Below are positions 44,940 through 64,000 of a stretch of DNA of 64,000 bases, in pieces (positions within the stretch are counted from its first letter, which is position 1; each line of letters begins with the position of its first letter). Location: the sequence record PV467749.1; one strand, 5' to 3'. A program made the position numbers and the translations under genes. This DNA is from a phage. The notes under the pieces were generated by a model. The model made no database searches, was not told the DNA's origin, and worked only from the letters and a program-made list of their open reading frames with translations.

Positions 44940-45026
44940 TATACTTTCCTCTTTGTTCGGAGGGGAACTATTCCCCTTCCGATATAAAACATTATACACT
45001 TTATTCAGTACTGTGCAAGTACTTTT

Positions 45027-45239
45027 TTAATCTTTCAGCCAATGATCCTGAATGAATTTTTCACCGGAACCTTGCTGCATTGATTGTAACAGACGTTCGC
45101 GATGAGCGGCGGCGAATTGCTCAGTACTATGCGTTACACCTGGTTGATATCTGGATTCACCATTGGGGGCGATGTATTGTACATCCCACGGTTTTTCGTT
45201 AGTATCAGACCATTTACGAACGATTAGTTGACCTTGCAT
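45027..45239 (-). CDS. hypothetical small protein
   Basis: 70 aa; PeSL cassette upstream. Confidence 0.5.
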   Translation of the reverse strand: MQGQLIVRKWSDTNEKPWDVQYIAPNGESRYQPGVTHSTEQFAAAHRERLLQSMQQGSGEKFIQDHWLKD

Positions 45240-45324
45240 TTTTCTTTCCTCTTAGTGGGGAGAATCATTTCTCCCCTTCATGTAAACTATTATACAGTAC
45301 TATAATCTATTGTCCAGTACTTTT

Positions 45325-45513
45325 TTACAGTTTATGAATCAATTCTTTATCTAAGCGATAGCGTACATTATTAATGGTAACAGCATTATTTTTAATGCTA
45401 CGCTGTACGGGTCCACCAGCAATAACAAACGTTGCTTTATTGCCCCGAACAATGATAGCACTTCCAGGATTACCGAAATCATCTTGTACTAAAATACTTG
45501 ATAAGTTTTCCAT
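45325..45513 (-). CDS. hypothetical small protein
   Basis: 62 aa; promoter and GGGGAA..TTCCCC hairpin upstream. Confidence 0.5.
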   Translation of the reverse strand: MENLSSILVQDDFGNPGSAIIVRGNKATFVIAGGPVQRSIKNNAVTINNVRYRLDKELIHKL

Positions 45514-45591
45514 TTTTATTTCCTCTTAGTAGGGGAAGATGTTTCCCCTTGATGCAAGTACTATAACAGTACTGAAAACTAAATGCAAGTA

Positions 45592-45948
45592 CTATGATAA
45601 AATCATGATAGGATATTCACTATCGATCAGTACCTCGAATCCGAATCCTTCGTACCATTCTTTAAGATTAAAGGCGTTATCTTCTCCCGTATCGCATTCT
45701 AAGATGATACAATCTGAATCATCGGCGGCATCGATAAAGGCATTCATTAATTCGTTACCTTCACCATTGCCCCGACTATCAGGATCAACATAAAGAGAAT
45801 CAATAAACGCTACACGGTCATAATCAAGATCCGGTGCAATGATTCCACGTTTAACAAACCAGTACTGCAATTGTGCTACTTTGCCCTGTACTTGATAACC
45901 AGTGATCTCGCCATTGTCAGTAGTACGCGTGATATGTTGTATTCCCAT
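45592..45948 (-). CDS. GNAT-family acetyltransferase-like protein
   Basis: 118 aa; motif A-like VDPDSRGNGEGNELMNAF and C-terminal EGFGFEV. Confidence 0.5.
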   Translation of the reverse strand: MGIQHITRTTDNGEITGYQVQGKVAQLQYWFVKRGIIAPDLDYDRVAFIDSLYVDPDSRGNGEGNELMNAFIDAADDSDCIILECDTGEDNAFNLKEWYEGFGFEVLIDSEYPIMILS

Positions 45949-46011
45949 GATTTCAATCCTCAGTTAAGATATAAAACATTATACACTACTGGATAGTACT
46001 GTCAATACTTT

Positions 46012-46269
46012 TTATCTCATAGATCTATGCCAACAATTACGCGGATCTCTTTTAAAAGTACTATCATGATCCTCCTGGCAAGTAATACAATACATGCACC
46101 CTATAACGGCCTGGCGTCGATTCTCAGGGATTTTATCGCCGCAGTCGAGGCAATGTACTAGTGATTCTCTTTGTGCGTTAATTTGCTTTCTAGCGTGGTT
46201 AACGGCGGCCTGAATCACTGCGTTAATCTCGTCTTGCTCGGCCCCATCTTTCGCGAATCCTACTGCCAT
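46012..46269 (-). CDS. TraR/DksA-family C4 zinc-finger protein
   Basis: 85 aa; CLDCGDKIPENRRQAVIGCMYCITCQE matches C-x2-CG-x2-IP-x2-RR and C-x2-CQ. Confidence 0.6.
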   Translation of the reverse strand: MAVGFAKDGAEQDEINAVIQAAVNHARKQINAQRESLVHCLDCGDKIPENRRQAVIGCMYCITCQEDHDSTFKRDPRNCWHRSMR

Positions 46270-46430
46270 TATTTTAACCTCATTATAAAAATACTATAGT
46301 ACTGTAATGCTACAATAATACTACTAGTGTTTATCTTATTCAAACCATATGATACTACATATCCACCAGCATTACCACGGATAGTAACGCCTTTGTACTG
46401 TCTATATAAATTCAACTGCGTATATTGCCT

Positions 46431-46503
46431 TTGATCAAGAATTGATCAGAATTATACTCCTTATGCTAAATTGATCCAGTACTTTTTTGATCATTTATTG
46501 ATC
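46431..46503. repeat. GATC / TGATCA cluster
   Basis: Five GATC sites within 73 bp inside a 290-bp non-coding leader. Confidence 0.5.
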
Positions 46504-46605
46504 GATATTATATAGTTACATTTGTGCACCCTATGGGTTAGTGACGTTCTCGTCTTGATGTAAGTATTATGCCAGTACTGGCATTGTATGTCAACAATTA
46601 TTTTC

Positions 46606-46643
46606 AAAAAAAGAAAAAGCCCACCAGCGTTAACCAGTGGGCT
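46606..46643 (-). terminator. intrinsic terminator
   Basis: Hairpin AGCCCAC..GTGGGCT 46618-46643 with long U-rich tail on minus RNA. Confidence 0.45.
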
Positions 46644-46649
46644 ATAATC

Positions 46650-46793
46650 TTACATCTTGCGGATAATCTTAACAGTATCTTTCACCGATTTACCGTTTTG
46701 CTGACATTGCTCGATCATTGCGTATTGTTCTGCGGTCAGATCCTCGCCAGTTTTTGCCAGTACTGCATCGATGAATGAATCCAGTGCGATCAT
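46650..46793 (-). CDS. hypothetical small protein (below ORF-track cutoff)
   Basis: 47 aa ORF read by hand (MIALDSFIDAVLAKTGEDL...), terminator immediately 3'. Confidence 0.4.
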   Translation of the reverse strand: MIALDSFIDAVLAKTGEDLTAEQYAMIEQCQQNGKSVKDTVKIIRKM

Positions 46794-46884
46794 TTTGTTT
46801 CTCTCTTATGTTAAGTTAACTACTGTTTATAAAACTTATTATACAGTACTATCAAACTATGTCAATAGTACTGGTAATATATTT

Positions 46885-47097
46885 TTAGTTAATGATAGTC
46901 AGTGTAAAATTGTAATCACCTGCCTGGTATAGTACTTTGTCGCCGAACGTTCCAACACGTTTCATATTGCAATAGATACCCATAACACTTTTTACATCTT
47001 TGATATTCCGAACGCCAGTAATATCCTTGTTTAAATGATCGTGATCAGAAAATAAAACTTGTTTTGCATTTTTCAGTACAGTGCAGATATTAGCCAT
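46885..47097 (-). CDS. hypothetical small protein
   Basis: 70 aa; PeSL cassette upstream. Confidence 0.5.
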   Translation of the reverse strand: MANICTVLKNAKQVLFSDHDHLNKDITGVRNIKDVKSVMGIYCNMKRVGTFGDKVLYQAGDYNFTLTIIN

Positions 47098-47193
47098 TTT
47101 GTTTTCTCTCTCTGTTAGTGGGGAGAAGTTTTTCTCCCCTTGATGTAAACTATTATACAGTACTATAATCTATTGTCAAACTATTTTTTTATA

Positions 47194-47535
47194 TTATTCG
47201 AAATCTTCTGGACCGGACTGATAATCATCTTCACCGCATGCACTTTCTAACGTTTCACCAGTGTAGTCATCAGTTAGTGAGTCATCCTCATAGTTCACGT
47301 CTACGCCAGTGATGTAAAACTGGCTATCGTCTGGATCATTGAAATTAATTTTTTGGATGTTTACAATAACTGTATTGATACCCAGGACACCGCCATCAGC
47401 CGTTACAAAGTACTGATATTTTTCACAACCGCCTGAATTGAAACCGTAATTAATTTCGGCCCGACCATCATTTAAACGCAGTGCCTGGGCGATGATTTCA
47501 TTTTCAAAGTTAGATTGAGCAATTGAGATAGTCAT
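47194..47535 (-). CDS. hypothetical acidic protein
   Basis: 113 aa; strongly acidic C-terminus. Confidence 0.5.
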   Translation of the reverse strand: MTISIAQSNFENEIIAQALRLNDGRAEINYGFNSGGCEKYQYFVTADGGVLGINTVIVNIQKINFNDPDDSQFYITGVDVNYEDDSLTDDYTGETLESACGEDDYQSGPEDFE

Positions 47536-47617
47536 GATTTGTTTCCTTATTACCAGGGGAAACCGTTTCCCCTTTCGATGTAAAACATTATACGCTTATC
47601 AGGAAGTAATGCAAGTA

Positions 47618-48085
47618 CTATTTCACGTTAATTTCAAAGTACTGCTCTTTGATGTTTTCCTGTTGGTAAATCTCGTTTAATGCTTTAAGATCTAAAACCT
47701 GTTTACCTGCTGCCTGAATATACTTTTTAAGAGTCGCTAACAGCTTCTCAGGCGTGTTTGTAGTCTTACGTGTTGGGATCTTATCGTGCCCCATAGCGTA
47801 ATACTGCTTACGTGCTATAGTACTGATAACACTGCGGTACGGTTCCATGATCAGCTTGTCTGTGTATTCGTCGCTATCCCCAAACTTCATACCGTGGATC
47901 GCAAAGGTCATCATCATGCGGTCGTTATCGCGGATATTGTGGGGGCAGTCGGCAAGCTCGCGAGTCAGTGACATAGTGATCCCCACGTCGCCACCCAGCG
48001 GTAAAGGTCGGGCGATAAAGAAACCGTTAGGGAATACTTTCAGGAAGTTTTCTTGAACTGCTGCGACGAATTCGATGCTATTCAT
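47618..48085 (-). CDS. hypothetical protein
   Basis: 155 aa; PeSL cassette upstream. Confidence 0.55.
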   Translation of the reverse strand: MNSIEFVAAVQENFLKVFPNGFFIARPLPLGGDVGITMSLTRELADCPHNIRDNDRMMMTFAIHGMKFGDSDEYTDKLIMEPYRSVISTIARKQYYAMGHDKIPTRKTTNTPEKLLATLKKYIQAAGKQVLDLKALNEIYQQENIKEQYFEINVK

Positions 48086-48300
48086 AATTCATTTCCTTAA
48101 TTAGTGGGGGAAACCGTTTCCCCTTTCGATGTAAAACATTATACGCCTATTGAGATAGTTTGCAAGTACTTTTTAAAAATAGTTTTCAGTACTCAATACT
48201 TATATAATAGATACACTTCCGCACCCTGTGGGCTAGTGAGCTATCTCTCAATGAATATATAATAGCAAAATGGCTGACCGAAGTCAACCACTTTTTTCAT

Positions 48301-48435
48301 TTATTTTTTAGCTTTAAGTACTGCGGCCTTTCGCGTCATGCCTTGCTTGATGTACTCCTTTACTTTCGCTTTTTTAGCGTTTACCTTGTCTGCTTTCGTT
48401 TTAGGAGTACTGTAAATTATACCGTTAGGATTCAT
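48301..48435 (-). CDS. hypothetical small basic protein (below ORF-track cutoff)
   Basis: 44 aa Lys-rich ORF read by hand; start overlaps stop of 48436-48525. Confidence 0.35.
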   Translation of the reverse strand: MNPNGIIYSTPKTKADKVNAKKAKVKEYIKQGMTRKAAVLKAKK

Positions 48436-48525
48436 TTAAATCACCATAAAGAATAGATAGGTTACTAACAATGCCGCGATCAATGCACCGACCAGGGCCG
48501 AACTATAGTAAGCTAATGATTTCAT
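48436..48525 (-). CDS. hypothetical hydrophobic peptide
   Basis: 29 aa (MKSLAYYSSALVGALIAALLVTYLFFMVI); ATGA overlap with upstream gene. Confidence 0.3.
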   Translation of the reverse strand: MKSLAYYSSALVGALIAALLVTYLFFMVI

Positions 48526-48674
48526 TTTTTAGCCTGAAAATAATGTTTAATTTGAGCGGCGGTCAGTGCACAATTACGCAGGAAGTTTTCTGTATAACTT
48601 TTGCGAGTACTGAAAGAGAATTGACCTTTGCCGTTACCGATAGTAACATCAAACCGAGCGTTGTATTGTTTCAT
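48522..48674 (-). CDS. hypothetical small protein
   Basis: 50 aa from ATG 48672-48674 (AGGAG SD); first gene of a coupled trio. Confidence 0.45.
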   Translation of the reverse strand: MKQYNARFDVTIGNGKGQFSFSTRKSYTENFLRNCALTAAQIKHYFQAKK

Positions 48675-48755
48675 TTTGATTCTCCTGTTATTGGGGAGAA
48701 TCATTTCTCCCCTCTATGTAAAACATTATACGCGTTTAAAAACTAATTACAAGTA

Positions 48756-48902
48756 CTATTTTTTAGATTTACGCAAACTTTCTACCATCTCAGGAGTAAG
48801 GCCCGGCGGGTAGGAAACTACTTCATCAACGAAACGTAATGGGAATACCCCATCTAAGGTTGAACGTGCTTTCTTGTTAGTACTCTTTTTTGATGCTTTC
48901 AT
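48756..48902 (-). CDS. hypothetical small protein (below ORF-track cutoff)
   Basis: 48 aa ORF read by hand; PeSL cassette upstream. Confidence 0.4.
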   Translation of the reverse strand: MKASKKSTNKKARSTLDGVFPLRFVDEVVSYPPGLTPEMVESLRKSKK

Positions 48903-48971
48903 TTCATATTCCTTAATTAGTGGGGAGAATCATTTCTCCCCTTCATGTAAAACATTATACGCGTTTAAAAA

Positions 48972-49181
48972 CTAATTACAAGTACTATTTGAAAGTAAAT
49001 GCTCATACGCTGCATTAACTACGTTTTCAATAACCGACTGTACAGAAAGATCCCCCACGTCCTGGCTATAGTAGAAATTGCTTACAGTGGTGTCATCGTA
49101 TGCAAATACTTTACCAGGTACGGCATCAATCACATACATATTAACCTTTAAGATGTCGATCTTATCCTGTACAGTAAGCAT
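48972..49181 (-). CDS. hypothetical small protein
   Basis: 69 aa. Confidence 0.5.
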   Translation of the reverse strand: MLTVQDKIDILKVNMYVIDAVPGKVFAYDDTTVSNFYYSQDVGDLSVQSVIENVVNAAYEHLLSNSTCN

Positions 49182-49186
49182 ATTAA

Positions 49187-49459
49187 TTACCCTTTTAAGT
49201 ACTGGATTAAGTAGTCTTGTTGATCTTCGGTGATTGCCGCCATCTTCCCTAGTACTGGATTAATGATATAATCCCCGGTAACGTCCTGTAACGCATTCTC
49301 AGGCGGTGAAACGGCTGGGGTAGCCATAGCCATCGCCTGGACTTGTTCGACGCTGTATCGCTCATATAGGCGGCATTCTTCCGGTGTTAACATAGCATCA
49401 GTACGCTTCATCGGTTTAATGATGCTTTCGATCTCATTCAGTACTTGATTAACGTTCAT
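49187..49459 (-). CDS. hypothetical protein
   Basis: 90 aa. Confidence 0.5.
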   Translation of the reverse strand: MNVNQVLNEIESIIKPMKRTDAMLTPEECRLYERYSVEQVQAMAMATPAVSPPENALQDVTGDYIINPVLGKMAAITEDQQDYLIQYLKG

Positions 49460-49510
49460 GGTATAATCCCCAATATAAGCGGCCTGAATCGACCGCTAAC
49501 GATGTTTTGA

Positions 49511-49780
49511 TTAATAGGTGTATGGTTGACGCTCAAACAATGATTGCACGTTGTACGCCCCGCTTATGGGCTTCGCTGGTAAATCAATTTTATATTGTTC
49601 ACGCTTAAAGATAATAAAACGGCAATTGTTTTTAACATCAAAATTGATTGAACGTTCCAGGAGTTTTCCATCGTGCACAAATACAAGATAACCGCTTGCT
49701 ACTTGTTTTGTAGTACTGGTTGCAACCATAGACCGCCGAACATGTGTACCTGCGTCGATTAAAGTACTGATATTTTTCAT
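49511..49780 (-). CDS. hypothetical protein
   Basis: 89 aa. Confidence 0.5.
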   Translation of the reverse strand: MKNISTLIDAGTHVRRSMVATSTTKQVASGYLVFVHDGKLLERSINFDVKNNCRFIIFKREQYKIDLPAKPISGAYNVQSLFERQPYTY

Positions 49781-49860
49781 TATACGATCCTCTTAAGTTA
49801 ATTTAATTTCTTTCCCCTATGCAGACACTATATCAAAGTATCTGCATAAAGTAAAGCTAA

Positions 49861-50184
49861 TTAAAGATCTTTTTTGCGTTTAACATTCTGTACAGTACAA
49901 TGCAACGGGATATTAAGATCATTGCACAAACGAGTAAGGGAGGTTTCATCAGTATTAAGCCCGTCTACTGATTCCTTTAAGAGAGATAACGCCGTTTGTT
50001 GATATGCATCTTCATAGCCATAAGTAAATGATTCAACCGCCAGATCATTCAAACCGTTATCCAGTTCAACGCTTACATGACAAGAATGATAAGTATTGCC
50101 ATATGAATCAGTCCAACGTTTACCGTCAACATTGATTGCACGGATTGCAGCCAGGGAAACGGTGTTAATGATAGTTTTAGCCAT
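49861..50184 (-). CDS. hypothetical protein, paralog of 43350-43673
   Basis: 107 aa; shared RWTDSYGNTYHSCHVS and TYGY motifs. Confidence 0.55.
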   Translation of the reverse strand: MAKTIINTVSLAAIRAINVDGKRWTDSYGNTYHSCHVSVELDNGLNDLAVESFTYGYEDAYQQTALSLLKESVDGLNTDETSLTRLCNDLNIPLHCTVQNVKRKKDL

Positions 50185-50273
50185 TTTTGTATTCCTTAAA
50201 TTAATATGTTGTCTTGATAAAATCTATTATGCCAGTACTATCAAACTATGTCAATAGTACTGTGATAATATTT

Positions 50274-50417
50274 TTACTTACTTTTTGCTTTCTTTGCTGC
50301 TTCCACCTGGTCGGCCCATTCTTTACCCCATACTTGTAAATTATAATGGTACTGGCAAAGAGCAACGCCCCGCTTTAAACCAGTAATAGATTTCTGACCA
50401 CATTGACAAGTTTTCAT
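50274..50417 (-). CDS. hypothetical small Cys-containing protein (below ORF-track cutoff)
   Basis: 47 aa ORF read by hand (MKTCQCGQKS...); PeSL cassette upstream. Confidence 0.4.
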   Translation of the reverse strand: MKTCQCGQKSITGLKRGVALCQYHYNLQVWGKEWADQVEAAKKAKSK

Positions 50418-50502
50418 TTTAGTTTCCTTGTAGTGGGGAGAACCATTTCTCCCCTTGATGTAATGTATTATACTTTATTCGATTTACTTTGCAAGTACTT
50501 TT

Positions 50503-50730
50503 TTAATTTAATTCATCAAGGCAAAGGATACGCTCAACGCCCAAATCAGTTAAACTAATCGACGGCACTTGATAGGTTTCAATGTATGCTACACTTGCCC
50601 ACTGACCGAACTCATTAACGGCCCAGGTATTCATTGCATTTTGCAATTCCGCACCTTCCTTGTTGGTAATGACTGCAACTACTTGTTCGTTGCCAGTAGT
50701 ACCAGATACGCGAGTAATGATAATAGCCAT
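50503..50730 (-). CDS. hypothetical small protein
   Basis: 75 aa from ATG 50728-50730; track ORF extended through promoter. Confidence 0.5.
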   Translation of the reverse strand: MAIIITRVSGTTGNEQVVAVITNKEGAELQNAMNTWAVNEFGQWASVAYIETYQVPSISLTDLGVERILCLDELN

Positions 50731-50962
50731 TGTTTTGATTCCTTTGATTTTGAAGGAGAACCGTTTCCCCCTCTCGATGTAAAACATTATACGCTAATCT
50801 CTTAATCGTGCAAGTACTTTTTATTACTTTTTGCAAAATACTTTAAACGCTCTCAATCGCGTTCTTACAGCCTTAACGCCACCAGCTAGGGCAATGCATC
50901 AGATAATCAGTTTAATGCGTTAGAATCGTTTCTAGGCGGTGCTGGTGGCCTGGTAAACGATA

Positions 50963-50994
50963 AACACAAAAAAGCCCACCGTTTAAGGTGGGCT
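50963..50994 (-). terminator. intrinsic terminator
   Basis: Hairpin AGCCCACC-gtttaa-GGTGGGCT 50973-50994, U-run on minus RNA, 3' of gene 51016-51498. Confidence 0.6.
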
Positions 50995-51015
50995 AGTGAT
51001 TCAGTACTTTAATTG

Positions 51016-51498
51016 TTATGCTTCAACTTTGCGATGAGCTTCGATCCATTCCTCGCGAGTCATACCACTGGAGTTAATCGCGTCCAGTACTACCGCAATA
51101 CAGTTACCACGCACCGGAATCAGATATTCTTCCCCGTTGTCCAGTACTACCGCTACGCGTTCCTGAATCCATTTTTTGGCTTTTACTTCTGGCTTGTCTT
51201 CCCCATACTTAACCGCCAGGGCTTTTTGTGCCATCTCTGTAACTACTTCCAGATCCAATCCAACTACTGCCGCCTGAATACTTTCGATTGTTGCTTGTAG
51301 TTCTGCTTCACGGGCCGCCTTTGCCGCTTCAATTTCTGCCGCTTTATTTGCTTGTAGTTCTTTCGCAGTACTGTACGCGATGTTAAAATTATTGCGTACC
51401 GCTTTCATGGTATCGTTATCCAGTTCAGCCAGGATCTCAGCCGCTACGTTAGTTTCATTTGCTACCAGTGCTTTGATGAATGATTTTACATTAGCCAT
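51016..51498 (-). CDS. hypothetical Ala/Glu-rich protein
   Basis: 160 aa from ATG 51496-51498 (AGGA SD); promoter TTGACA-16-TAGAAT upstream. Confidence 0.55.
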   Translation of the reverse strand: MANVKSFIKALVANETNVAAEILAELDNDTMKAVRNNFNIAYSTAKELQANKAAEIEAAKAAREAELQATIESIQAAVVGLDLEVVTEMAQKALAVKYGEDKPEVKAKKWIQERVAVVLDNGEEYLIPVRGNCIAVVLDAINSSGMTREEWIEAHRKVEA

Positions 51499-51697
51499 TT
51501 TATAAATCCTCAATTAAAGTTTAGTTTACGTTTATTAGTGTATCAAAGTTTTCTCGACGTGTCCAGTTTTTCGTTCGACTTACTGGCGGTCTACTTAGTG
51601 CTCCCCGTCTTGATGTAATACATTCTACGCTTTTCTGCGGTAATGTCAACTACTTTCTTAAAACTATTTTCAAAGTATCTCAGTACTACGATACTAC

Positions 51698-51724
51698 AAA
51701 AACAAAAAAGCCCACCAGGTGGGC
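51698..51724 (-). terminator. intrinsic terminator
   Basis: Hairpin AGCCCACC..GGTGGGCT 51708-51724 with U-run on minus RNA, 3' of gene 51732-51962. Confidence 0.55.
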
Positions 51725-51731
51725 TATGTAC

Positions 51732-51962
51732 TTAATCAGTGAGTAAAATATTAAACACTTTACCATTTAACGTTATTGGTGCACTGCTACCAGGCTCAAG
51801 ATCCGTTAATATACCTGCAATCGCTTTATCATTGGCGACCTTTCCAGTGTCCAACAGTACTACAGTACTGATAAGATTAACGCTCGTTTCAATATCATAA
51901 TGCACGGCGTTAAGTAGTTGTGTAGTACTGCTTTCGTTAAGTAAAACAATTCGCTTAGTCAT
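51732..51962 (-). CDS. hypothetical small protein
   Basis: 76 aa. Confidence 0.5.
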   Translation of the reverse strand: MTKRIVLLNESSTTQLLNAVHYDIETSVNLISTVVLLDTGKVANDKAIAGILTDLEPGSSAPITLNGKVFNILLTD

Positions 51963-51983
51963 GATGTTACCCCGTAGTATCTA

Positions 51984-52283
51984 TCAACGGCAATTAATAA
52001 CGCCGGTATGCGTTACTTTCTCAGTATCCATTACAGTGACCGAACCGCGTTTAGTACTGGCATCATAATAAATTGTTGTGCTACCGTTTTCGTCTTCTTC
52101 ATGGAACGGGCCGTTTTTAAATGCTTCCGGCTGGATCTCTAAATCCTTTAATACAATCTCGCCAGTACTTTCATCGGTCATTGCAACAGTGCACTGAATG
52201 AATTTTTCACTACTTACATCTAATGACGCATTAACAGCGAAAGAGGAAACAGATAAAGCCAGGGCGATGATTGTAATTTTCAT
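51984..52283 (-). CDS. secreted or periplasmic protein with signal peptide
   Basis: 99 aa from ATG 52281-52283; N-terminus MKITIIALALSVSSFAVNA then S. Confidence 0.5.
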   Translation of the reverse strand: MKITIIALALSVSSFAVNASLDVSSEKFIQCTVAMTDESTGEIVLKDLEIQPEAFKNGPFHEEDENGSTTIYYDASTKRGSVTVMDTEKVTHTGVINCR

Positions 52284-52389
52284 TTGATTATCCTTAGTTA
52301 CCAGGGGAACCGCTCCCCTATGCAAAACATTATACGCGTTTAAAAACTAATTGCAAGTATTTTAATAAAAAGTATTTGAAAAATAATTG

Positions 52390-52418
52390 TTGACAACTGC
52401 ATCCAGTACTGGCATAAT
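52390..52418 (+). promoter_or_regulatory. plus-strand sigma70-like promoter, antisense to gene array
   Basis: TTGACA 52390-52395, 17 bp spacer with CAGTACTG, CATAAT 52413-52418. Confidence 0.45.
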
Positions 52419-52499
52419 TACTACATCAAGACGAAACAGTCACTAACCCACCGGGTGCCGAGATCCGTCTATTAAATGATTCAGTACTGAAAAAGTAAC

Positions 52500-52518
52500 G
52501 GGGAGTTATTATCTCCCC
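52500..52518. terminator. bidirectional terminator
   Basis: Hairpin GGGGAG-ttattat-CTCCCC; U-rich on both strands; 3' of minus gene 52525-52746 and of the short plus transcript. Confidence 0.5.
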
Positions 52519-52524
52519 GCGTTG

Positions 52525-52746
52525 TTATTTTGTAAGGTATAAACAGAAGTCGCCTTTATTTGCTACGCCGCCAGTGTAACGCGATGAATAGTTAGAAACG
52601 TCCTGGACTTCTGCTATTACCAGGGTATCATCATTCAATTCGTCGCAGAAGCAAACGGCTGGATCTTGTACGCCGATTTTGTCGGCATGTTCCCGCATAG
52701 ATTTAACCAGTGCTTCCAGTTGGGAAAGAGTAGTGATATTAGCCAT
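52525..52746 (-). CDS. hypothetical small protein
   Basis: 73 aa from ATG 52744-52746; track ORF extended through promoter. Confidence 0.5.
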   Translation of the reverse strand: MANITTLSQLEALVKSMREHADKIGVQDPAVCFCDELNDDTLVIAEVQDVSNYSSRYTGGVANKGDFCLYLTK

Positions 52747-52832
52747 TTTATTTTCCTCATTACCAGGGAGAACCATTTCTCCCTTTGATGTAAACCATTA
52801 TACAGTACTGAAAACTAATTGCAAGTACTTTT

Positions 52833-53093
52833 TCAATATTGTTTGTCGTCGTCTTCCTCGATGAATTGACCGACGAAATGATCTACTTTCGCTTTGAGGC
52901 TTTTATAATCTTCTTCTACTTCCTTTAAACGTTCCTGGTAGTATTCCAATGCTTCAAGATACGCCGCCTCAGCAGTTTTTGCACGCATGGCTAAATTCAT
53001 GCCACGCGTTTCATCAAATAGCCAATAACCATCGGTGCACTGGCTAATAGATAATGTCTTGCTTAGTGCTGTATAGCTAATTACTTTACTCAT
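52833..53093 (-). CDS. hypothetical protein
   Basis: 86 aa; charged helical C-terminal half; GAGGG SD. Confidence 0.5.
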   Translation of the reverse strand: MSKVISYTALSKTLSISQCTDGYWLFDETRGMNLAMRAKTAEAAYLEALEYYQERLKEVEEDYKSLKAKVDHFVGQFIEEDDDKQY

Positions 53094-53150
53094 TAGATAA
53101 CCCTCAGTAAAGGCGGGAACTATTACCCGCCATTATCTCAGTACTGAATA

Positions 53151-53390
53151 TTACATTCCAACCATTGCAGCACGGATCGCAGTAGTGCTATATTTGAATC
53201 CGTCCGGCGTTGTAGTAGTACCGTTGGCTTTTAATCTGCGGTACATACATTCCGCAGCAATATCTTTAGTTCTACTTTGTGCGATGCAACTTTGTGCAAG
53301 CCGATACAATGACTCACCGTTATTAATCCAAAGGCTTACATTCCAATGAGTTTTGTTTTTGTGTCCGTTGTAAGTTTTAGTACTAGCCAT
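53151..53390 (-). CDS. hypothetical protein, paralog of 55196-55435
   Basis: 79 aa from ATG 53388-53390; shared HKNKTHWNVSLWINN and PDGFKYSTTAIRAAMVGM. Confidence 0.55.
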   Translation of the reverse strand: MASTKTYNGHKNKTHWNVSLWINNGESLYRLAQSCIAQSRTKDIAAECMYRRLKANGTTTTPDGFKYSTTAIRAAMVGM

Positions 53391-53480
53391 TTTTAAATCC
53401 TCGTTTGAGCGGGGAACCACTCCCCGCCTTGATGTAAAGTATTATACGCTTTTAAACTTAGTTTACAAGTACTTTTTAAA

Positions 53481-54092
53481 TTAATATTCGATTGATTCCA
53501 CTACGCCATCAATAACATTGAATTGATATTCGTTACCCTCAATCAGTGCAGTAATGTTTTCAGTAGTGAATTGATCCTCATATGCATTCTCTAAATCACG
53601 GTACAACTTACGAGATAATTCACGGATCGCATCAGTCAGTAAGTTTTCCAGGTCATCAGCAAGTGCCGCTTGTTTTACAGTTAAATCAGTGTAGCGAGTA
53701 TCAACGCAACCGCTTACCGTGTTTTCGTGTGCGTAGCGAGAGTGTGAACGTTCTACACTCATTGCCAAATCATCTTCATTCAACAAGTGACGGATTGAAC
53801 GATATTTCGTTAACGCCTTAACCTTGCGTAAAAACTTCTCAGCGTCAACGTGGTTAGTACTGATTGATGCACCGTCACCTTGCGACCAAAAACCACTGTA
53901 TTGCAATTCAGCTTCATCTATGCCGTATTCTGGTAGTACTGTTTCTTTATAGTACTCGATAACGCCCTCAGCAAAGAAATTATCCTCACATGAACGCTCA
54001 CGATCCCGAACCAGTTCGATAGCCGCCGTTTTTTGTTCTGCGTTCAGTTCAGAAAAAGCCATAACAAAAGTAGTAGTAGTGATAGTTTTCAT
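53481..54092 (-). CDS. hypothetical protein
   Basis: 203 aa; motif YSGFWSQGDGASIS; no family recognised. Confidence 0.55.
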   Translation of the reverse strand: MKTITTTTFVMAFSELNAEQKTAAIELVRDRERSCEDNFFAEGVIEYYKETVLPEYGIDEAELQYSGFWSQGDGASISTNHVDAEKFLRKVKALTKYRSIRHLLNEDDLAMSVERSHSRYAHENTVSGCVDTRYTDLTVKQAALADDLENLLTDAIRELSRKLYRDLENAYEDQFTTENITALIEGNEYQFNVIDGVVESIEY

Positions 54093-54160
54093 TTTGTAAC
54101 CCTCATTCAGTAGTTGATGTAAGTATTATACGCTTTTAAAAACATTTGTCAAACTATTTT

Positions 54161-54235
54161 ATCAGGGGAGTTTTTCGTGTGCCTTACTCCTGGGCTACTT
54201 AACGGGAAGTTACTTATTTCGTTCCCCGTCCTGAT
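54161..54235 (-). ncRNA. candidate structured RNA element between tandem promoters (copy 2)
   Basis: 75 nt duplicate of 44375-44447; inner stem CGGGAA..TTCCCG replaces CGGGG..CCCCG. Confidence 0.3.
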
Positions 54236-54316
54236 GTAAAACATTATACGCTTATTGAGATAGTTTGCAAGTACTTTTTAAAAATAGTTTTCAGTACTGA
54301 ATAGTAAAAAAAAGTA

Positions 54317-54345
54317 TTGACAGCATTATCAAGTACTGGCATAAT
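54317..54345 (+). promoter_or_regulatory. plus-strand sigma70-like promoter
   Basis: TTGACA, 17 bp spacer with AGTACTG, CATAAT; followed by the ACCCACCGGGTGC box. Confidence 0.45.
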
Positions 54346-54522
54346 ATACCCCATGACAACAGCTAACCCACCGGGTGCACAATTGTAACTATACTAAACT
54401 AATTTTTCTATAGATACACTCCCGCACCCTATGGGCTACGGCTTATCTGCCAATGAATACATTATGCCAGTACTGACAAAATAAGTCAATACCGGCAATT
54501 GTAAATTTTTCAAAAAATATGA

Positions 54523-54753
54523 TTATACTGCAATCGCGTCCAGGCTGTAATAATAATAAGTGCCGTATTGGTGTACTTTATTACCTTTTATTTCAGTACT
54601 GAATGAATCCGAACGATTTGCATATGATGTTAATTTAAAGTACTTTGATTTGCTGATACGTTGCCATACACCACAGATCCGCTGTAAGTAAGTAGTTTTA
54701 TTCGTGGTCGTATCTTTTACGGTTTTAACTTCAGTCATATACATATTAGTCAT
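54523..54753 (-). CDS. hypothetical small protein
   Basis: 76 aa; PeSL cassette upstream. Confidence 0.5.
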   Translation of the reverse strand: MTNMYMTEVKTVKDTTTNKTTYLQRICGVWQRISKSKYFKLTSYANRSDSFSTEIKGNKVHQYGTYYYYSLDAIAV

Positions 54754-54840
54754 TTTTATTACTCCAGGTTATAGGCGGGAAGAGTTCCCGCTCTCGATGT
54801 AAAACATTATACGCCTTTAAACATAGTTTGCAAGTACTTT

Positions 54841-55107
54841 TTATTCAAGTACTGCAATCTTTTTAGTACGGTACACGGTCACGCGGTTGCCCTTTCGGTC
54901 GAGCTTTATTTCTACCACTCGACGCGATACACTATCGGGACTTTTTAAGGCCGCTAACCAGTACTGTAATGATCTGGCGGTACTACGCTTTACAATGGCC
55001 CAACGTTTACCACGTTCCGATTGTACGCCCATATCTTTAAACGTTGCCCCGTCCTGGCGTGCGGCGATCCGAGCTTGTTCACGCGTCGCAAAATACTTAA
55101 TATTCAT
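54841..55107 (-). CDS. hypothetical protein, paralog of 42859-43254
   Basis: 88 aa from ATG 55105-55107. Confidence 0.55.
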   Translation of the reverse strand: MNIKYFATREQARIAARQDGATFKDMGVQSERGKRWAIVKRSTARSLQYWLAALKSPDSVSRRVVEIKLDRKGNRVTVYRTKKIAVLE

Positions 55108-55195
55108 GCTGTTGCCCTTATCGTTGGTGTATGAATAAAACACTATTATAAAGTACTATCCCCGTGCAATAGTACTTTAAATAAATTCTATTCTA

Positions 55196-55435
55196 TTACA
55201 TTCCAACCATTGCCGCACGGATCGCAGTAGTGCTATATTTGAATCCGTCCGGTGTTTTATCTTGTCCAGTCTGTTCTAAAAATAACATCATATGACGGGC
55301 CGCATCATTGCGATTAGTGCTATCGTTAATAAAGTCCTGGGCCAACCGGTATAATGATTCATCGTTATTAATCCAAAGGCTTACATTCCAATGAGTTTTG
55401 TTTTTGTGACCTAAGAACATTTTTGATTTAGCCAT
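55196..55435 (-). CDS. hypothetical protein, paralog of 53151-53390
   Basis: 79 aa from ATG 55433-55435. Confidence 0.55.
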   Translation of the reverse strand: MAKSKMFLGHKNKTHWNVSLWINNDESLYRLAQDFINDSTNRNDAARHMMLFLEQTGQDKTPDGFKYSTTAIRAAMVGM

Positions 55436-55528
55436 TTTTTTAATCCTCTTATATAGTGGGGAACTATTCCCCACCTGATGTAAAACATTATACGCTTTTA
55501 AACTTAGTTTGCAAGTACTTTATTAAAC

Positions 55529-55891
55529 TTATTTGTAAATTTTGCCACTTTCTACCCATACCAGGAAACGAGGCATATTATCCCATGCATCTTGCTTTAA
55601 GTTTAAGCCGTGCAATTCCTCAGTTGTTGCCATGCCTGGGACTGGTTTACTATACACCGAGAATTTTTCGCCCATGTACTGATAAACCATCGTCAAATCA
55701 CTGGCGATCATCTTATGGATCATCGCATCAAGCATCACGGTCGCGGCGTATTGTTCACGCTTAAGCGGCAGCATTTTAATCAGTTCGCGGTATGCGTCAA
55801 TGTGAGTTTTAACCGTTGCCGCCGGAAGATCTTTCATCTCGTCGCGGAAGTTAACCAGGTTAGCAATAATTTTGGTGATTTGAGTCGCCAT
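55529..55891 (-). CDS. hypothetical protein
   Basis: 120 aa from ATG 55889-55891; track ORF extended through promoter. Confidence 0.55.
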   Translation of the reverse strand: MATQITKIIANLVNFRDEMKDLPAATVKTHIDAYRELIKMLPLKREQYAATVMLDAMIHKMIASDLTMVYQYMGEKFSVYSKPVPGMATTEELHGLNLKQDAWDNMPRFLVWVESGKIYK

Positions 55892-56199
55892 CGTTTTAAT
55901 CTCTCTTAAAAGTGAGTTAGGAGCGTTTCCCCCGTCTCGATGTAAAACATTATACGCCTTTAAACATAGTTTACAAGTACTTTCTACAAATACTTTTAAA
56001 ATAGTTTTCTTTCTATATAGGGAAACTATCATTCAGTACTGAATCAACCAAATCACTACTACACCCCGTAAAACGGCCTCAATCGCATTCTAACGCATTA
56101 TTACACCTAAGCTATACATTTGCACCATTCTAATCATTCCAGTGCGTTACGGGCCGTTTAAACGCGTTAAATTATTTTCAATTATTTTGTTTTTAGGTA

Positions 56200-56227
56200 T
56201 TGACTCAGTACTAAAAAAGCGTATAAT
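56200..56227 (+). promoter_or_regulatory. plus-strand promoter 1 of non-coding hub
   Basis: TTGACT, 16 bp spacer with CAGTACT, TATAAT. Confidence 0.45.
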
Positions 56228-56415
56228 TACTACATAGACGCGAGAAAGCGGATACCCCAGGGGGTGCGGAATTGTGCCCAAAATTCAAGATATAAAAAAA
56301 GGATACACTCCCGCACCCTAGCAGGTAAACGCACTTTCTCAGTACTGAAATATAGTACCATAGTCCGGCCCAGGATAGCAAGCAAATTAATTAAAACTTT
56401 TTTGCTTCCAGGGTA

Positions 56416-56443
56416 TTGCTTTATTTTTTCAGTACTGTATAAT
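56416..56443 (+). promoter_or_regulatory. plus-strand promoter 2 of non-coding hub
   Basis: TTGCTT, 16 bp spacer with CAGTACTG, TATAAT. Confidence 0.4.
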
Positions 56444-56540
56444 AGTTCCATCAAGTCGAGAAAGACTCAAGCCCACCGGGTGCATAGTTACGCCCAAAAT
56501 TCAGTACTGAAAAAATTTTTAAAAATATCCGTCCAGGTCG

Positions 56541-56569
56541 TTGACATTGCCCCCAGTTTATAAGATAAT
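56541..56569 (+). promoter_or_regulatory. plus-strand promoter 3 of non-coding hub
   Basis: TTGACA, 17 bp spacer, GATAAT; faces the iteron cluster. Confidence 0.45.
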
Positions 56570-56659
56570 GATTCCAGATTCAGAAAAATCTAACACCAGA
56601 TACTGCGGGGAAACTATCCCCACGCGGTAGGGGAACTATTGGAAAAAACAAAATAAAAT

Positions 56660-56810
56660 TTTGATTTAGCCGTCTATACTTCCAGACGTGTAACCATCTA
56701 GCCGTTTAGCCGTCCAAACGTCTAGCCATCCAGCCATCCAGAAATCTAGCCGTTTAGCCGTCTAGATGGATAGCCATCTTTACTTCCAGACTTCTGGAGG
56801 GCTAGACATA
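56660..56810. repeat. iteron cluster
   Basis: Short direct repeats TAGCCGT, CCATCCAG, GGCTAGA and twice TACTTCCAGAC within about 150 bp; no ORF. Confidence 0.55.
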
Positions 56811-57180
56811 TCTACGCCCAAAATCCATCCAGGGTAACTACACCCAAAATCCGTCAGTACTATACCATAGATCTATCTTTTGAAAGGGAGTATTCAGTAC
56901 TGCCATCATAGCCCTCACTATGTTACCCTAGGAGGATGAAGACTATCATGTAGTACTGAATACTGTTAGAGGGAATCCACCAGCTTGTGCTGGTGGCATA
57001 ATGCTTTAGATTAAAATCAGTACTGACACCATTCTGTTAATATCAGTACTGTTATTACGATTTTCATATGAGGTTCAAAAAGATGTACCACCACAGGAGG
57101 AACTATCTTTTCTGTACTGTCTCACGACAGGAGGTAGAGTAAATGAATTGTTCGCAGCAACTCATCTCTCTATGTAGAAC

Positions 57181-57209
57181 ATTATACAGTACTGAATCAT
57201 AATGTCAAT
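57181..57209 (-). promoter_or_regulatory. minus-strand promoter facing into the non-coding hub
   Basis: TTGACA 57204-57209, 17 bp spacer with CAGTACTG, TATAAT 57181-57186. Confidence 0.45.
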
Positions 57210-57875
57210 AGCTTTCTTTCATTATTCAGTACTGATATTCTTGAGAACTACCCGACTACAAACATCATTATATCCCACAAATCATAAACGTCCCAACGTA
57301 AATTTCAACTTTCGAAGAACCAACTTTTATTTCATAGGTACTCCAAAATTTTTAGGATCGAGATTTAGGATGGAGTACTAACCAACTTTTTGCTGGAGCC
57401 TCAAGGGGTAATTGAATTTTACCCCGAAGGGTAAAAGGGTAATTGAAATTAAGGTGAAAGTAATAATTCAGTACTAATCATTGCGTGATTACTTTTGATT
57501 ACATTTGATGTAATTTGCAAAATGGAAAAGGAGCTTGGAAACTACAAAGTACGGCAGACTTCCTCTGCCTACTTAGTGACATATCGACACCTTCAGTACT
57601 GAATACTTTTAGGGCAGTACTGAATCCTTCCCTAGCATTCTTGAGTAATCTTGTCTATAATAATCAGTACTGAATCATATATAATCATTCTGTGATTCTA
57701 CGGTGCTCATATAAATGTTTATATATGATTACTTATGACTACATATGATTACGGGGTTTAGCCTGGGGAGAATCCTAGTGATCGCATTTGTCCAGGCTGA
57801 ATTTTAACAATTCTTCTAATTGTTAAAGCCTGTCCAATGCTTTCCCTGCGGAGCTTCCCCTGTCTATATGTTGAA

Positions 57876-62039: not shown

Positions 62040-62252
62040 TTAGTGCTCGATTAAAAGGGTTAGGATGTAATAGTATTGCATACTTTCTACCCCTTGTACA
62101 GCATTTCTTATTTTATTATTCCTGTACGAGTTCAAGAGTTTAGGACAATGTTTGAAGTTTATATAATTATTTTGTGTATACAGTAGGCTTTCTCGTAGAC
62201 CTTTTGTTGGTAGTGCATCAATGTAGTACTGTTCAATGTTCATAGTGTTCAT
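62040..62252 (-). CDS. family C small protein
   Basis: 70 aa; MNTMNIEQYYIDAL...ILTLLIEH. Confidence 0.5.
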   Translation of the reverse strand: MNTMNIEQYYIDALPTKGLRESLLYTQNNYINFKHCPKLLNSYRNNKIRNAVQGVESMQYYYILTLLIEH

Positions 62253-62476
62253 AGAGCTACCAGTACTAAGATTTTTGATAATTGTTTATTGCTATCCCCG
62301 CAGATGTTGCTGTGTAAAATACTCACTACAAGGGTATCAAGTGCATTGTTCAGCATAAGGTTACATCCAGTACTGTTATGTGTTTTTAGCTCAATTAGCC
62401 ACGAACTATCCGCGAGAAACTTCGCGTACTCTAGTTCATTTAGAGTATTAATGTAGTACTTAAGTGTAGTTGTCAT
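62249..62476 (-). CDS. family C-like small protein, first gene of array
   Basis: 75 aa; MTTTLKYYINTL...ILVLVAL. Confidence 0.45.
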   Translation of the reverse strand: MTTTLKYYINTLNELEYAKFLADSSWLIELKTHNSTGCNLMLNNALDTLVVSILHSNICGDSNKQLSKILVLVAL

Positions 62477-62562
62477 GTACAGTTCTCCTTATATTCCTTA
62501 TATTCCTTCTATAGTACATCAGTACTGAAAGGTTGTCAAGGGTTTTCTTTTTGGGGTAAATA

Positions 62563-62571
62563 TGATATAAT
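62563..62571 (+). promoter_or_regulatory. extended -10 promoter
   Basis: TGaTATAAT about 15 bp upstream of AGGAGG SD and ATG 62588; no good -35 at 17 bp. Confidence 0.35.
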
Positions 62572-62587
62572 GAATAAAGGAGGAAAT

Positions 62588-63724
62588 ATGTTACCTTTTG
62601 CAAGAATGGTTAAGTACGGGAACGTAGCACCAGATAAACTAAAAATACGTGATATTGTTGCAGGTGCTAATTCATTATTACTAATAACCGAGGATAATGA
62701 ATTATGGGTGCGTGGTAATAATGCGTATGGCAAATTAGGTATAGGAACTGATACTATAGTGAATGTAACCGAGTGGACTAAAGTTAGAGATGATGTTAAG
62801 TTTGCTTGTGCTAGTAATTTAGTATGCGTTGTATTAACTGTAGATAATAAAATTTTCTACTGTGGTGATCAATGGTTTGAATCTGGTGGTTCGACAAGTT
62901 CTAAAGTTGTTACATGGAAAGATGTTACGACACAATTTAGTGCAGTGAATCTAAGCACAGTTCGTGAAATGAAAATAACTTATTATTGTGTAGGATTACT
63001 TACAAATGATAATAGATTATATGCTAAAGGATATGATAATAACCAATCATTTGGTGGTTCAACAAGCAAAGTTAATGCTGTATTAGTTGCGTCAAATGTT
63101 TCAAAATTCTACACTTCTCTATCTGGTACTATATATTCTAGTACTACTGGTGGTTACTACCGCTGTGGTATAAGCAATACTGGAGCATTGGGTACTAGCA
63201 CAAATTTAACTTCTTATAATTTGTACTCTGCTCCCGAATTTGCATCCGAATGTGCAGTTGGTATGTCAACATTAAACTCTGGTATATTATATTATGATAC
63301 TAATGGTATCACTAGATATGTTATAGCAGGTCAAAATAGAAATTATCAACTAGGTAATTCTTCTTCAAATACCACAAACGTATATTCGTATACAGAATTA
63401 ACCGGATATAGAGGCAGGTTTAGGGATTTGTGGAGTGATATGAATAACTCTGTTCTTTCTTTTGCTATAAGCACAGATGGCAATACTTTATATTATGCTG
63501 GTACTAACAATACACTATCTTCTGGTGATCCTGGTGTTGAATATTCATCTGCATTTAAAGAAGTACCACACGGGTTTAATGATATAACAAAGGTGGTATC
63601 GTTAGCCTATCTATCTATAGTGCAAGATTCAACTGGATGGTATTATTCTGGAAATGCAACTACGTTATATGGTTTGCCATCGAGTGATGAATTTATACCA
63701 TTACCATTACCAACAATAATTTAA
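62588..63724 (+). CDS. RCC1-like repeat protein
   Basis: 378 aa from ATG after AGGAGG SD; repeats such as VRGNNAYGKLGIG and YAKGYDNNQSFGG. Confidence 0.5.
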   Translation: MLPFARMVKYGNVAPDKLKIRDIVAGANSLLLITEDNELWVRGNNAYGKLGIGTDTIVNVTEWTKVRDDVKFACASNLVCVVLTVDNKIFYCGDQWFESGGSTSSKVVTWKDVTTQFSAVNLSTVREMKITYYCVGLLTNDNRLYAKGYDNNQSFGGSTSKVNAVLVASNVSKFYTSLSGTIYSSTTGGYYRCGISNTGALGTSTNLTSYNLYSAPEFASECAVGMSTLNSGILYYDTNGITRYVIAGQNRNYQLGNSSSNTTNVYSYTELTGYRGRFRDLWSDMNNSVLSFAISTDGNTLYYAGTNNTLSSGDPGVEYSSAFKEVPHGFNDITKVVSLAYLSIVQDSTGWYYSGNATTLYGLPSSDEFIPLPLPTII

Positions 63725-63730
63725 ATACAG

Positions 63731-63757
63731 GCCAGTACTTGATACTGGCTTTTTTTG
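63731..63757 (+). terminator. intrinsic terminator
   Basis: Hairpin GCCAGTA-cttga-TACTGGC 63731-63749 followed by T7. Confidence 0.6.
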
Positions 63758-63790
63758 ATTAAATATAGTATAATGAATAAGGGAGGGAAT

Positions 63791-64000
63791 ATGTTACCTT
63801 TTGTAAGAATGTTTGATTATGGAAATGAAGCTCCTACCAACTCTGGTCGTTATAAAATATATTCCAGTGATTCTATGTATCTTCATGATACTTATACTGA
63901 CAAGTTGTATGCATCTTCTGCGACGAATTGGGGTACTGGTACAGGTGTAGCATCGAGTAAATTTATTCTTTGTGCGGAGAATGTTAAACGAGTTCTATTG
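63791..64000 (+). CDS. paralog of RCC1-like repeat protein, 3' end outside window
   Basis: Starts MLPFVRMFDYGN, same N-terminus as 62588-63724; GGGAGG SD; ORF open to window end. Confidence 0.45.
   Translation, partial: MLPFVRMFDYGNEAPTNSGRYKIYSSDSMYLHDTYTDKLYASSATNWGTGTGVASSKFILCAENVKRVLL

Follow-up and report, generated by a model that had tools for sequence, protein, structure and literature searches.

A common N-terminal peptide on an array of diversified RCC1-like propellers and other single-domain proteins in Asteriusvirus and related jumbo phages: a candidate virion-incorporation signal

Background

The DNA analyzed here is a stretch of 64,000 nucleotides from a phage (sequence record PV467749.1), which is called the window throughout. 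The region matched the jumbo myoviruses of E. coli that make up the genus Asteriusvirus (121Q, PBECO4, phAPEC6, G17, UB, slurp01, Sharanji and fEgEco12), and the end of the window holds the first two genes, designated gene A and gene B, of an array of RCC1-like paralogs that adjoins the long terminal repeat in these phages. The products of the array share a 12-residue N-terminal peptide, the tag, followed by a highly variable body. The interpretation that we favor, by a small margin over even chances, is that the array is a repertoire of virion-borne, single-domain binding modules that have a common N-terminal incorporation peptide and that are diversified by cassette recombination. A broader proposal is advanced more tentatively, with chances that we would put slightly below even, namely that M-[LIF]-P-[FI]-x-[RKI]-[IML]-x-x-Y-G-N serves as a transferable signal for incorporation into the virion, carried on at least four unrelated binding folds in Rak2-like jumbo phages (Asteriusvirus, Mimasvirus, Eneladusvirus, Munch-like and Xanthomonas phages) and that the terminal-repeat locus is a plug-in repertoire of virion-borne binding modules, shuffled and re-tagged via cassettes in Asteriusvirus.

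The RCC1-like array has already been annotated and published, including its multi-copy nature and the detection of its products in virions (PMC5259590, PMC7247149). The CBB paper listed the homologs in 121Q and PBECO4 (121Q_234-238, 240-242 and 244-248) (PMC5259590), while the authors of the phAPEC6 paper noted eleven RCC1-like proteins, suggested from eukaryotic RCC1 that they have a role in ordering the DNA, and stated that nothing was known about the function of RCC1-like proteins in prokaryotes (PMC7247149). In the fEgEco12 paper, two 'chromosome condensation regulators' were among the few strongly diverged proteins of two phages of one species. The occurrence of RCC1-like paralogs at a strand switch by itself therefore adds nothing. 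The question that remained was why 350-kb coliphages keep 10-15 diverged propellers, and why the locus is occupied in their relatives by proteins of the Kelch, LamG-like and glycine-rich kinds, all of these types being found in virions. No description of the tag peptide (MLPF), of the cassette structure or of the location of the proteins was found in the literature searched, which included the topics of RCC1-like virion and tail fiber proteins and of cryo-electron microscopy of 121Q- and RaK2-like phages. Three elements of the present analysis were not found in that literature, 1) the presence of the tag on several folds, 2) its association with virion proteomes and 3) the concerted evolution driven by the cassettes.

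Results

The tag is conserved on unrelated bodies

The tag and the bodies were compared in 24 full-length paralogs from G17 and fEgEco12, together with gene A. The median identity of the bodies was 23%, while the first 12 residues were 84% conserved. Genes A and B, which a preliminary description made from the window sequence alone had taken to be paralogs with the same N-terminus, conformed to this pattern. Their bodies were about 23% identical and both proteins start MLPF[A/V]RM..YGN, with MLPFARMVKYGN in A and MLPFVRMFDYGN in B.

Within Asteriusvirus, the conservation extended to the synonymous sites of the tag. The codons TTA and CCT were used in 28 of 28 tags and AGA in 27 of 28 (all 27 of the arginine codons), and Gly11 was never encoded by GGT; in the bodies, the usage of TTA, CCT, AGA and, for glycine, GGT was 0.47, 0.29, 0.42 and 0.63, respectively. 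The fixation of synonymous sites thus indicates homogenization at the level of the DNA.

The tag was also present in other jumbo phages. Salmonella phage Munch has a 13-gene array whose products start MIPF[ATS]R[IM]..YGN, and tagged proteins were found in Cronobacter phage GAP32 (gp001, gp002 and a third open reading frame (ORF)), Serratia phage BF, Xanthomonas phage XaC1 (MFPIPIISKYGN) and Pectobacterium phage CBB (CBB_548-554). In all five phages the synonymous sites of the tag varied freely, with CCA, CCG, CCT or CCC for proline and GGA, GGG, GGT or GGC for glycine, and the DNA 5' of the tagged genes outside Asteriusvirus was unrelated. Since the peptide was kept while the synonymous sites varied, selection on the tag peptide itself is indicated.

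The bodies headed by the tag were of at least four unrelated types, an RCC1-like propeller, a Kelch propeller (CBB_550, 552 and 554), a LamG_3/ConA-like domain (Munch_534, at 36.7 bits with a cutoff of 27.6, CBB_548, CBB_551 and, weakly, GAP32_002) and a glycine-rich Gly_rich_2 body (Munch_544, with G17_77 in the same PHROG, 4474). The CBB cluster (350196-355464), in which the bodies were Kelch propellers, LamG-like or similar to GAP32_002, ended about 0.5 kb short of the terminal repeat as annotated. Large virion and baseplate proteins were further carriers of LamG-like domains.

In a search of 1.84 billion representative proteins, giant RCC1 proteins with many repeats made up most of the matches. 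Of the nine matches that were retrieved, seven (P0030, P0033, P0035, P0158, P0161, P0168 and P0171) were tagged, metagenomic RCC1-like proteins of 360-390 residues, and most of the tagged metagenomic proteins also had a C-terminal F-x-x-h-P-x-h-P motif. A scan of IMG/VR with the tag-coding DNA returned only 121Q and a 378,379-bp contig that matched CBB, and so added no breadth.

Tagged proteins are found in virions

Mass spectrometry of phAPEC6 identified 62 virion proteins, among them the tagged proteins gp003, 005, 006, 007, 009, 010, 549 and 551 (Table 1 of PMC7247149). Eight of the 11 annotated tagged proteins were therefore in the virion list, compared with 62 of 551 proteins overall (Fisher p = 2e-6), and one of the eight, gp549, is the ortholog of gene B. 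In CBB, five of the seven tagged proteins (CBB_548, 549, 551, 552 and 553) were in the virion proteome with a sequence coverage of 9.5-51%. The RCC1-like gp001 of GAP32 is a virion protein by mass spectrometry (PMC5259590), and gp002 of the same phage is annotated as a virion structural protein.

The propellers were considered as the material of the hair-like whiskers seen on phAPEC6, an idea weakened by the observation that CBB has whiskers and no RCC1-like homolog (PMC5259590). The peptide coverage of the propellers was, moreover, low compared with that of the abundant small virion proteins.

Gene A encodes an RCC1-like propeller

In the preliminary description, repeated segments typical of RCC1 propeller blades had been recognized in gene A, and a profile search and structure prediction had been proposed as checks. 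Both were carried out and bore the reading out. The Pfam models RCC1_2 (27.2 bits, cutoff 22) and RCC1 (22.6 bits, cutoff 21.7) matched gene A above their cutoffs, although marginally, while the RCC1-like whole-domain model, PF25390, gave an E value of 4e-20 with a score of 72.8 that was below its threshold of 150. PHROG 4219, 'regulator of chromosome condensation', matched gene A with an E value of 2e-56 and the gene B fragment with 1e-18. A profile of gene A and its homologs matched the solved structures of HERC1, RPGR, HERC2, RCC2, UVR8 and RCC1.

The AlphaFold2 model of gene A, built from an alignment of 11 sequences, had a predicted local distance difference test (pLDDT) score of 83.3, a predicted template modeling (pTM) score of 0.85 and 28 strands, which the model arranges as what appear to be seven four-stranded blades. 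Residues 1-14, with a pLDDT below 50, were disordered. The best matches of the model in the PDB, found with Foldseek, were UVR8, the RCC1-like domains (RLDs) of HERC2, RPGR, RCC2 and RCC1, with template modeling (TM) scores of 0.66-0.78 and E values down to 3e-19. Among viral models, the best matches were annotated proteins of PBECO4, GAP32, slurp01, Yersinia phage fHe-Yen9 and Erwinia phage pEa_SNUABM, and RCC1-like domains were also found within long viral proteins of more than 1000 residues, one of which is annotated as a tail fiber.

Gene A shares with the eukaryotic RCC1-like domains (RCC1, UVR8, HERC2 RLD, RPGR) the seven blades, a repeat length of about 50-60 residues and a loop of the form G-x-N-x-x-G-x-L-G. 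The glycine that closes strand C occurred seven times with a spacing of 46-57 residues. Unlike the eukaryotic domains, gene A had a clear loop motif in only three blades (GNNAYGKLG at 43, GYDNNQSFG at 148 and GQNRNYQLG at 248), the motif being degenerate in the other four, and its identity to the RCC1-like Foldseek matches was only 13-18% (15-17% to RCC1 itself). The profile matches, the model, the structural matches and the repeat spacing, taken together, make the assignment of the fold to gene A solid. Eukaryotic RCC1 is an exchange factor for Ran. Ran is not known from bacteria, and there was nothing in support of an exchange-factor or chromatin function for gene A.

The ATG at 62588 is the start supported by a Shine-Dalgarno (SD) sequence, while the in-frame ATG at 62570 sits within the -10 box and is a gene-caller artefact that accounts for the 384-residue versions of the protein in some databases. 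The product of gene A has a high content of Ser, Thr, Gly, Asn and Tyr. Its nucleotide sequence was about 96% identical to genes of slurp01, UB, G17 and Sharanji, and the protein was 96-98% identical to its counterparts in UB, slurp01 and Sharanji. Its identity to a paralog group that many other phages carry was about 51%. Gene B runs off the end of the window after 70 residues, over which it was 100% identical to fEgEco12 g595 and 88.6% identical to 121Q gp248 and phAPEC6 gp549.

Each gene is preceded by a repeated cassette

The TATAAT and strong SD that had been pointed out at the start of the work were present 5' of both gene A and gene B (Table 1), and comparison with the relatives showed that they are parts of a larger repeated unit. 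The array cassette consists of a hairpin, GCCAGTAC-n-GTACTGGC, a T run and TTGATTAAATATAGTATAATGAATAAAGGAGGGAAAT, followed by ATG TTA CCT TTT ... AGA ATG. Internal cassettes carry TAGTATAAT, while the first gene carries the extended -10 element TGaTATAAT, which is likewise present 5' of the first array gene of G17 and of fEgEco12. The hairpin that follows gene A also recurs between paralogs in these two phages. The 26-nt promoter/SD block was present in two copies in the window at three or fewer mismatches, compared with none in 100 shuffled sequences. The 41-nt promoter/SD part was present in up to 12 copies per Asteriusvirus genome, mostly 6-12, and, save for a weak partial match in three Clostridium phages, the 41-nt cassette was not found outside Asteriusvirus among 50,697 phage records.

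Several known promoter classes were considered for the cassettes. A canonical sigma-70 promoter was ruled out, since the sigma-70 scan, which missed the cassette, found no -35 element at 16-18 nt for the plus-strand genes. The sequence 17 nt from the extended -10 of gene A is TTTTCT, and the nearest -35-like sequences, TTGATT/TTGTAT, are only 8-9 nt upstream of the cassette -10. The plus-strand TTGTCA at 62534-62539 is not the -35 of gene A, but the reverse complement of the TTGACA of the minus-strand promoter. The T4-type late promoter of phAPEC6, TATAAATA, stands before the genes of the major capsid protein, the scaffold, gp232, gp238 and gp242 (region 135000-184000), and gp237c of this phage is a late sigma factor similar to gp55. 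There were no occurrences of TATAAATA in the 16-kb array of phAPEC6, and the phage late promoter was consequently rejected. The sequence TTTGATTAA matched the consensus of the T4 MotA box, the mark of a middle promoter, at seven of nine positions by eye, but it is located 6 nt from the -10 and not the expected 12 nt or so, and a middle promoter of this type was rejected as well. Judged by its sequence, the -10-only cassette promoter would represent a third class beside the sigma-70 and late types.

The composition of the array differs between phages

In the relatives, the tandem array of paralogs continues past the position that corresponds to the end of the window. It comprised 11-12 genes in G17, 11 in UB, 15 in fEgEco12 and 13 in phAPEC6, most encoding 370-400 residues and most having their own terminator. 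Its position after a block of leftward small genes was the same in the window and the relatives. The terminal repeat of fEgEco12 is 20,993 bp long, which, by arithmetic on the coordinates of the record, places the start of the array about 5 kb inside the repeat.

The order and content of the array varied between genomes, and more than 25 body groups (at 70% identity) were found in five phages. The arrangement in the window, a gene of ortholog group I (gene A) adjacent to one of group A (gene B), was present in none of the five relatives compared. The body of gene A was about 98% identical to that of G17_70, while codons 5-10 represented another tag haplotype (ARMVK compared with VRMLN). In ortholog group A, the tag haplotype was VRMFD in the window and fEgEco12, ARMMN in G17, VRMIK in 121Q and ARMIK in phAPEC6. 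Of the 15 fEgEco12 paralogs, 10 had VRMFD or one of its close variants, VRLFD and VLLFD. These patterns suggest that the cassettes of hairpin, -10, SD and tag recombine between paralogs.

Two features of the phAPEC6 record (MK817115.1) were also observed. Three intact tagged ORFs at 2434, 6063 and 7325 (369, 396 and 244 residues) are unannotated and therefore could not be picked up by the proteome search of that phage. The two ends of the record duplicate two array genes, gp550 and gp551, which are found at both 350178-352535 and 3-2360.

The strand switch and the leftward genes

The ORFs of 55 or more residues covered the minus strand from 674 to 62476 almost without gaps, and the only long plus-strand ORF in that scan was 62570..63724, with nothing comparable earlier in the window. 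The strand switch that had been reported after some 62 kb of minus-strand genes was thus evident, with genes A and B on the plus strand beyond it. The divergent junction between the two sets of genes was conserved in G17 and fEgEco12, where it is likewise located 5' of the first gene of the array.

Table 1. Coordinates of the array genes, their control elements and the strand-switch junction in the window
Feature	Position	Strand	Remarks
Gene A, RCC1-like seven-bladed beta-propeller protein, 378 residues, array ortholog group I	62588..63724	+	ATG 62588, TAA 63722-63724
Tag codons 1-12 of gene A, encoding MLPFARMVKYGN, outside the propeller	62588..62623	+	Paralog alignment, AlphaFold2 model
Gene B, first 70 codons, tag MLPFVRMFDYGN, array ortholog group A	63791..64000	+	Orthologs fEgEco12 g595, 121Q gp248, phAPEC6 gp549
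Extended -10 of gene A, TGaTATAAT	62563..62571	+	TG 62563-62564, TATAAT 62566-62571
SD of gene A, AAGGAGG	62577..62583	+	4 nt 5' of ATG
Intrinsic-terminator-like hairpin (GGCCAGTAC..GTACTGGCT and T run) 3' of gene A	63729..63751	+	5' element of the next cassette
Cassette promoter/SD block of gene B, AAATATAGTATAATGAATAAGGGAGGG	63761..63787	+	-10 TATAAT 63769-63774, SD GGGAGGG 63781-63787
Sigma-70-like promoter for leftward genes, TTGACA-17-TACTAT, 10/12	62511..62539	-	Promoter scan
Divergent intergenic junction, leftward small-gene block/rightward propeller array	62477..62587		111 bp

The suggestion that the junction marks a boundary between early and later modules was borne out in part. At 43-57 kb (43000-57300) there were nine TTGACA-16/17-TATAAT promoters with a perfect match to the consensus, every one of them on the minus strand, together with about 15 near-perfect TTG[CT]AA-16-TATAAT sites and several GC-rich terminator hairpins on the same strand. 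These consensus sigma-70 promoters are what would be expected of early genes driven by the host RNA polymerase, so that the left block fits the early half of the suggestion. By analogy, this layout of promoters and terminators appears to be of the promoter-early-stem-loop (PeSL) kind that is typical of the early hyperplastic regions of T4-type phages. The propeller genes, which have neither TATAAATA nor a -35 element, did not bear out the designation of the rightward side as late. In a relative, PA5oct, the genes of the terminal repeat are expressed early (PA5oct transcriptome paper); the promoter motifs given for that phage are generic -10/-35 ones and shed no light on the array cassette.

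Other observations concern the leftward genes. Between 57876 and 62476 on the minus strand, 19 tightly packed ORFs of 59-78 residues form one diverged paralog family with the consensus M..xEYY..L ... C ... Y..L.LI and a mean column identity of 25%. The family, which occupies the gap from the probable boundary of the terminal repeat to the propeller array, has only 'hypothetical' annotations in G17, 121Q and fEgEco12. A second array of small genes at 31310-37005, also on the minus strand, consists of about 25 back-to-back ORFs of 65-91 residues, mostly with short overlaps. Within the junction, a 9-bp unit is repeated at 62486-62512 (TCCTTATAT twice, then TCCTTCTAT). Read on the minus strand, the repeats place three AAGGA motifs, which resemble an SD, within the short leader of the gene at 62249-62476; the unit is present in one copy fewer in G17.

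Discussion

The proposed explanation takes as its basis the fold of gene A, the anatomy of the cassettes, the conservation of the tag at the protein level, its occurrence on four types of body, the detection of tagged proteins in purified virions and the signatures of recombination, which were established above or in the papers cited. Each gene is a self-contained cassette of terminator hairpin, -10-only promoter, strong SD and 12 conserved codons joined to a variable single-domain body. The peptide M-L-P-F-x-R-M-x-x-Y-G-N may act as a flexible extension at the N-terminus through which the body is taken into the virion, and the bodies would be diversified ligand-binding modules present in low copy number on the particle. 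Recombination between the nearly identical cassettes could add, delete, reorder and re-tag modules, so that each phage would have a different repertoire. The modules would be located on the exterior of the virion and bind ligands on the host surface; this placement was suggested by the folds of the bodies and by the RCC1- and LamG-like domains in large virion proteins, one of them an annotated tail fiber.

Several observations weigh against this explanation, 1) the cassette promoter is not of the TATAAATA late type that precedes the structural genes, which is unusual for virion proteins, 2) each tagged protein of phAPEC6 was represented by only 1-5 peptides, so that a low copy number and carry-over both fit, 3) gene A has no ortholog in any phage with a published proteome and is linked to the virion by its family, 4) a peptide of 12 residues is short for a docking element, 5) the propellers could equally well bind intracellular host proteins and 6) nonsynonymous codon differences exceeded synonymous ones between the gene A orthologs of the window, G17 and UB (15:4, 8:6 and 14:6). 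The nonsynonymous excess could result from relaxed constraint or from diversifying selection, the counts being too small for a test.

The alternative that survives best, although we consider it unlikely, is that the tagged proteins are internal head proteins that enter the capsid along with the DNA and are ejected into the host to act there as effectors or in counter-defence, the tag being similar to the capsid targeting sequence (CTS) of T4 and the array to the polymorphic T4 internal-protein locus. Beta-propellers are common scaffolds for protein-protein interactions, which would suit such proteins. The tagged proteins are associated with the virion at low abundance, phAPEC6 contains an inner body and encodes, as gp227c, a prohead protease like that of T4, and a promoter that is not of the late type counts in favor of the same idea. 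The T4 prohead protease cleaves after L/I-x-E, but there was no conserved protease site, Glu-containing or otherwise, after the tag, where position 13 is I, V, K, E, T or N. In addition, the LamG-like domains in large virion and baseplate proteins, and the RCC1-like domains fused into long proteins, including the annotated tail fiber, fit parts of an external fiber rather than internal proteins. The resemblance to the T4 internal proteins lies in a short conserved N-terminal peptide on diverse, rapidly evolving bodies that end in the virion (PMC3012670), and the difference, apart from the protease site, in the bodies of the tagged proteins, which are beta-rich binding folds of 25-45 kDa. Internal head proteins would explain the tag and the diversity as well as virion-borne binding modules do, but they fit the lectin-like bodies less well.

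A second alternative, which we judge improbable, is that the proteins function in the infected cell, for instance in host takeover or as scaffolds, that their detection in virions is carry-over and that the 5' end is conserved mainly as nucleic acid, being a translation-initiation region and recombination cassette, and less as a functional peptide. The first 12 codons and the upstream 41 nt are indeed fixed within Asteriusvirus, synonymous sites included, and the low peptide counts and the promoter that is not late-type are what such proteins might be expected to show. However, the other genera keep the peptide even though the codons and the upstream DNA differ, and the enrichment in virions was found independently in phAPEC6 (p = 2e-6) and CBB (5/7), with gp001 of GAP32 detected as well. 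A role in DNA condensation, or as inner-body proteins that organize the 350-kb genome in the head, is highly improbable; although the name is found in many database records, the proteins are present in virions and the role was suggested in the phAPEC6 paper, it was taken from eukaryotic RCC1 by authors who knew of no prokaryotic function (PMC7247149), 50 tagged proteins had 5-9% K+R, a net charge of -6 to +7 and a median isoelectric point of 6.6, and being poor in basic residues are therefore a poor fit to a DNA-condensing protein, the same tag and locus bear Kelch, LamG and glycine-rich bodies, and 10-15 paralogs at 23% identity are unlike a structural role in DNA packing. Judged by these sequences, the label 'DNA condensation protein' appears to be an unsupported transfer of the name from eukaryotic RCC1.

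The genes are the same, and occupy the same position in the window, as those of the arrays known in Asteriusvirus and Rak2-like phages (121Q_234-238, 240-242 and 244-248, PBECO4, phAPEC6 gp549-gp010 and GAP32 gp001). The closest parallel to the cassettes is provided by the PeSL cassettes of T4-type phages, repeated intergenic units of stem-loop terminator, promoter and SD that lie on either side of variable genes and through which modules are shuffled by recombination (PMC2839356, PMC4122927). The array cassettes are similar in that a hairpin, a TATAAT and an SD recur from one variable gene to the next, with evidence of exchange. They differ in two respects. PeSLs have a full sigma-70 consensus with a -35 element, which the array cassette lacks, and the array repeat reaches 36 nt into the coding region, so that it homogenizes the peptide as well. 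The true PeSL-like units of the window are those in the leftward early block.

The findings on the tag, the virion proteins and the cassettes constitute a testable hypothesis of moderate interest. If the tag is an incorporation signal, it would account for the way in which accessory modules can be exchanged and loaded by jumbo phages, and it would provide a short tag with which foreign proteins might be displayed on, or packaged in, these particles. The role of the modules, whether in adhesion, in host range or as injected effectors, would then be directly testable.

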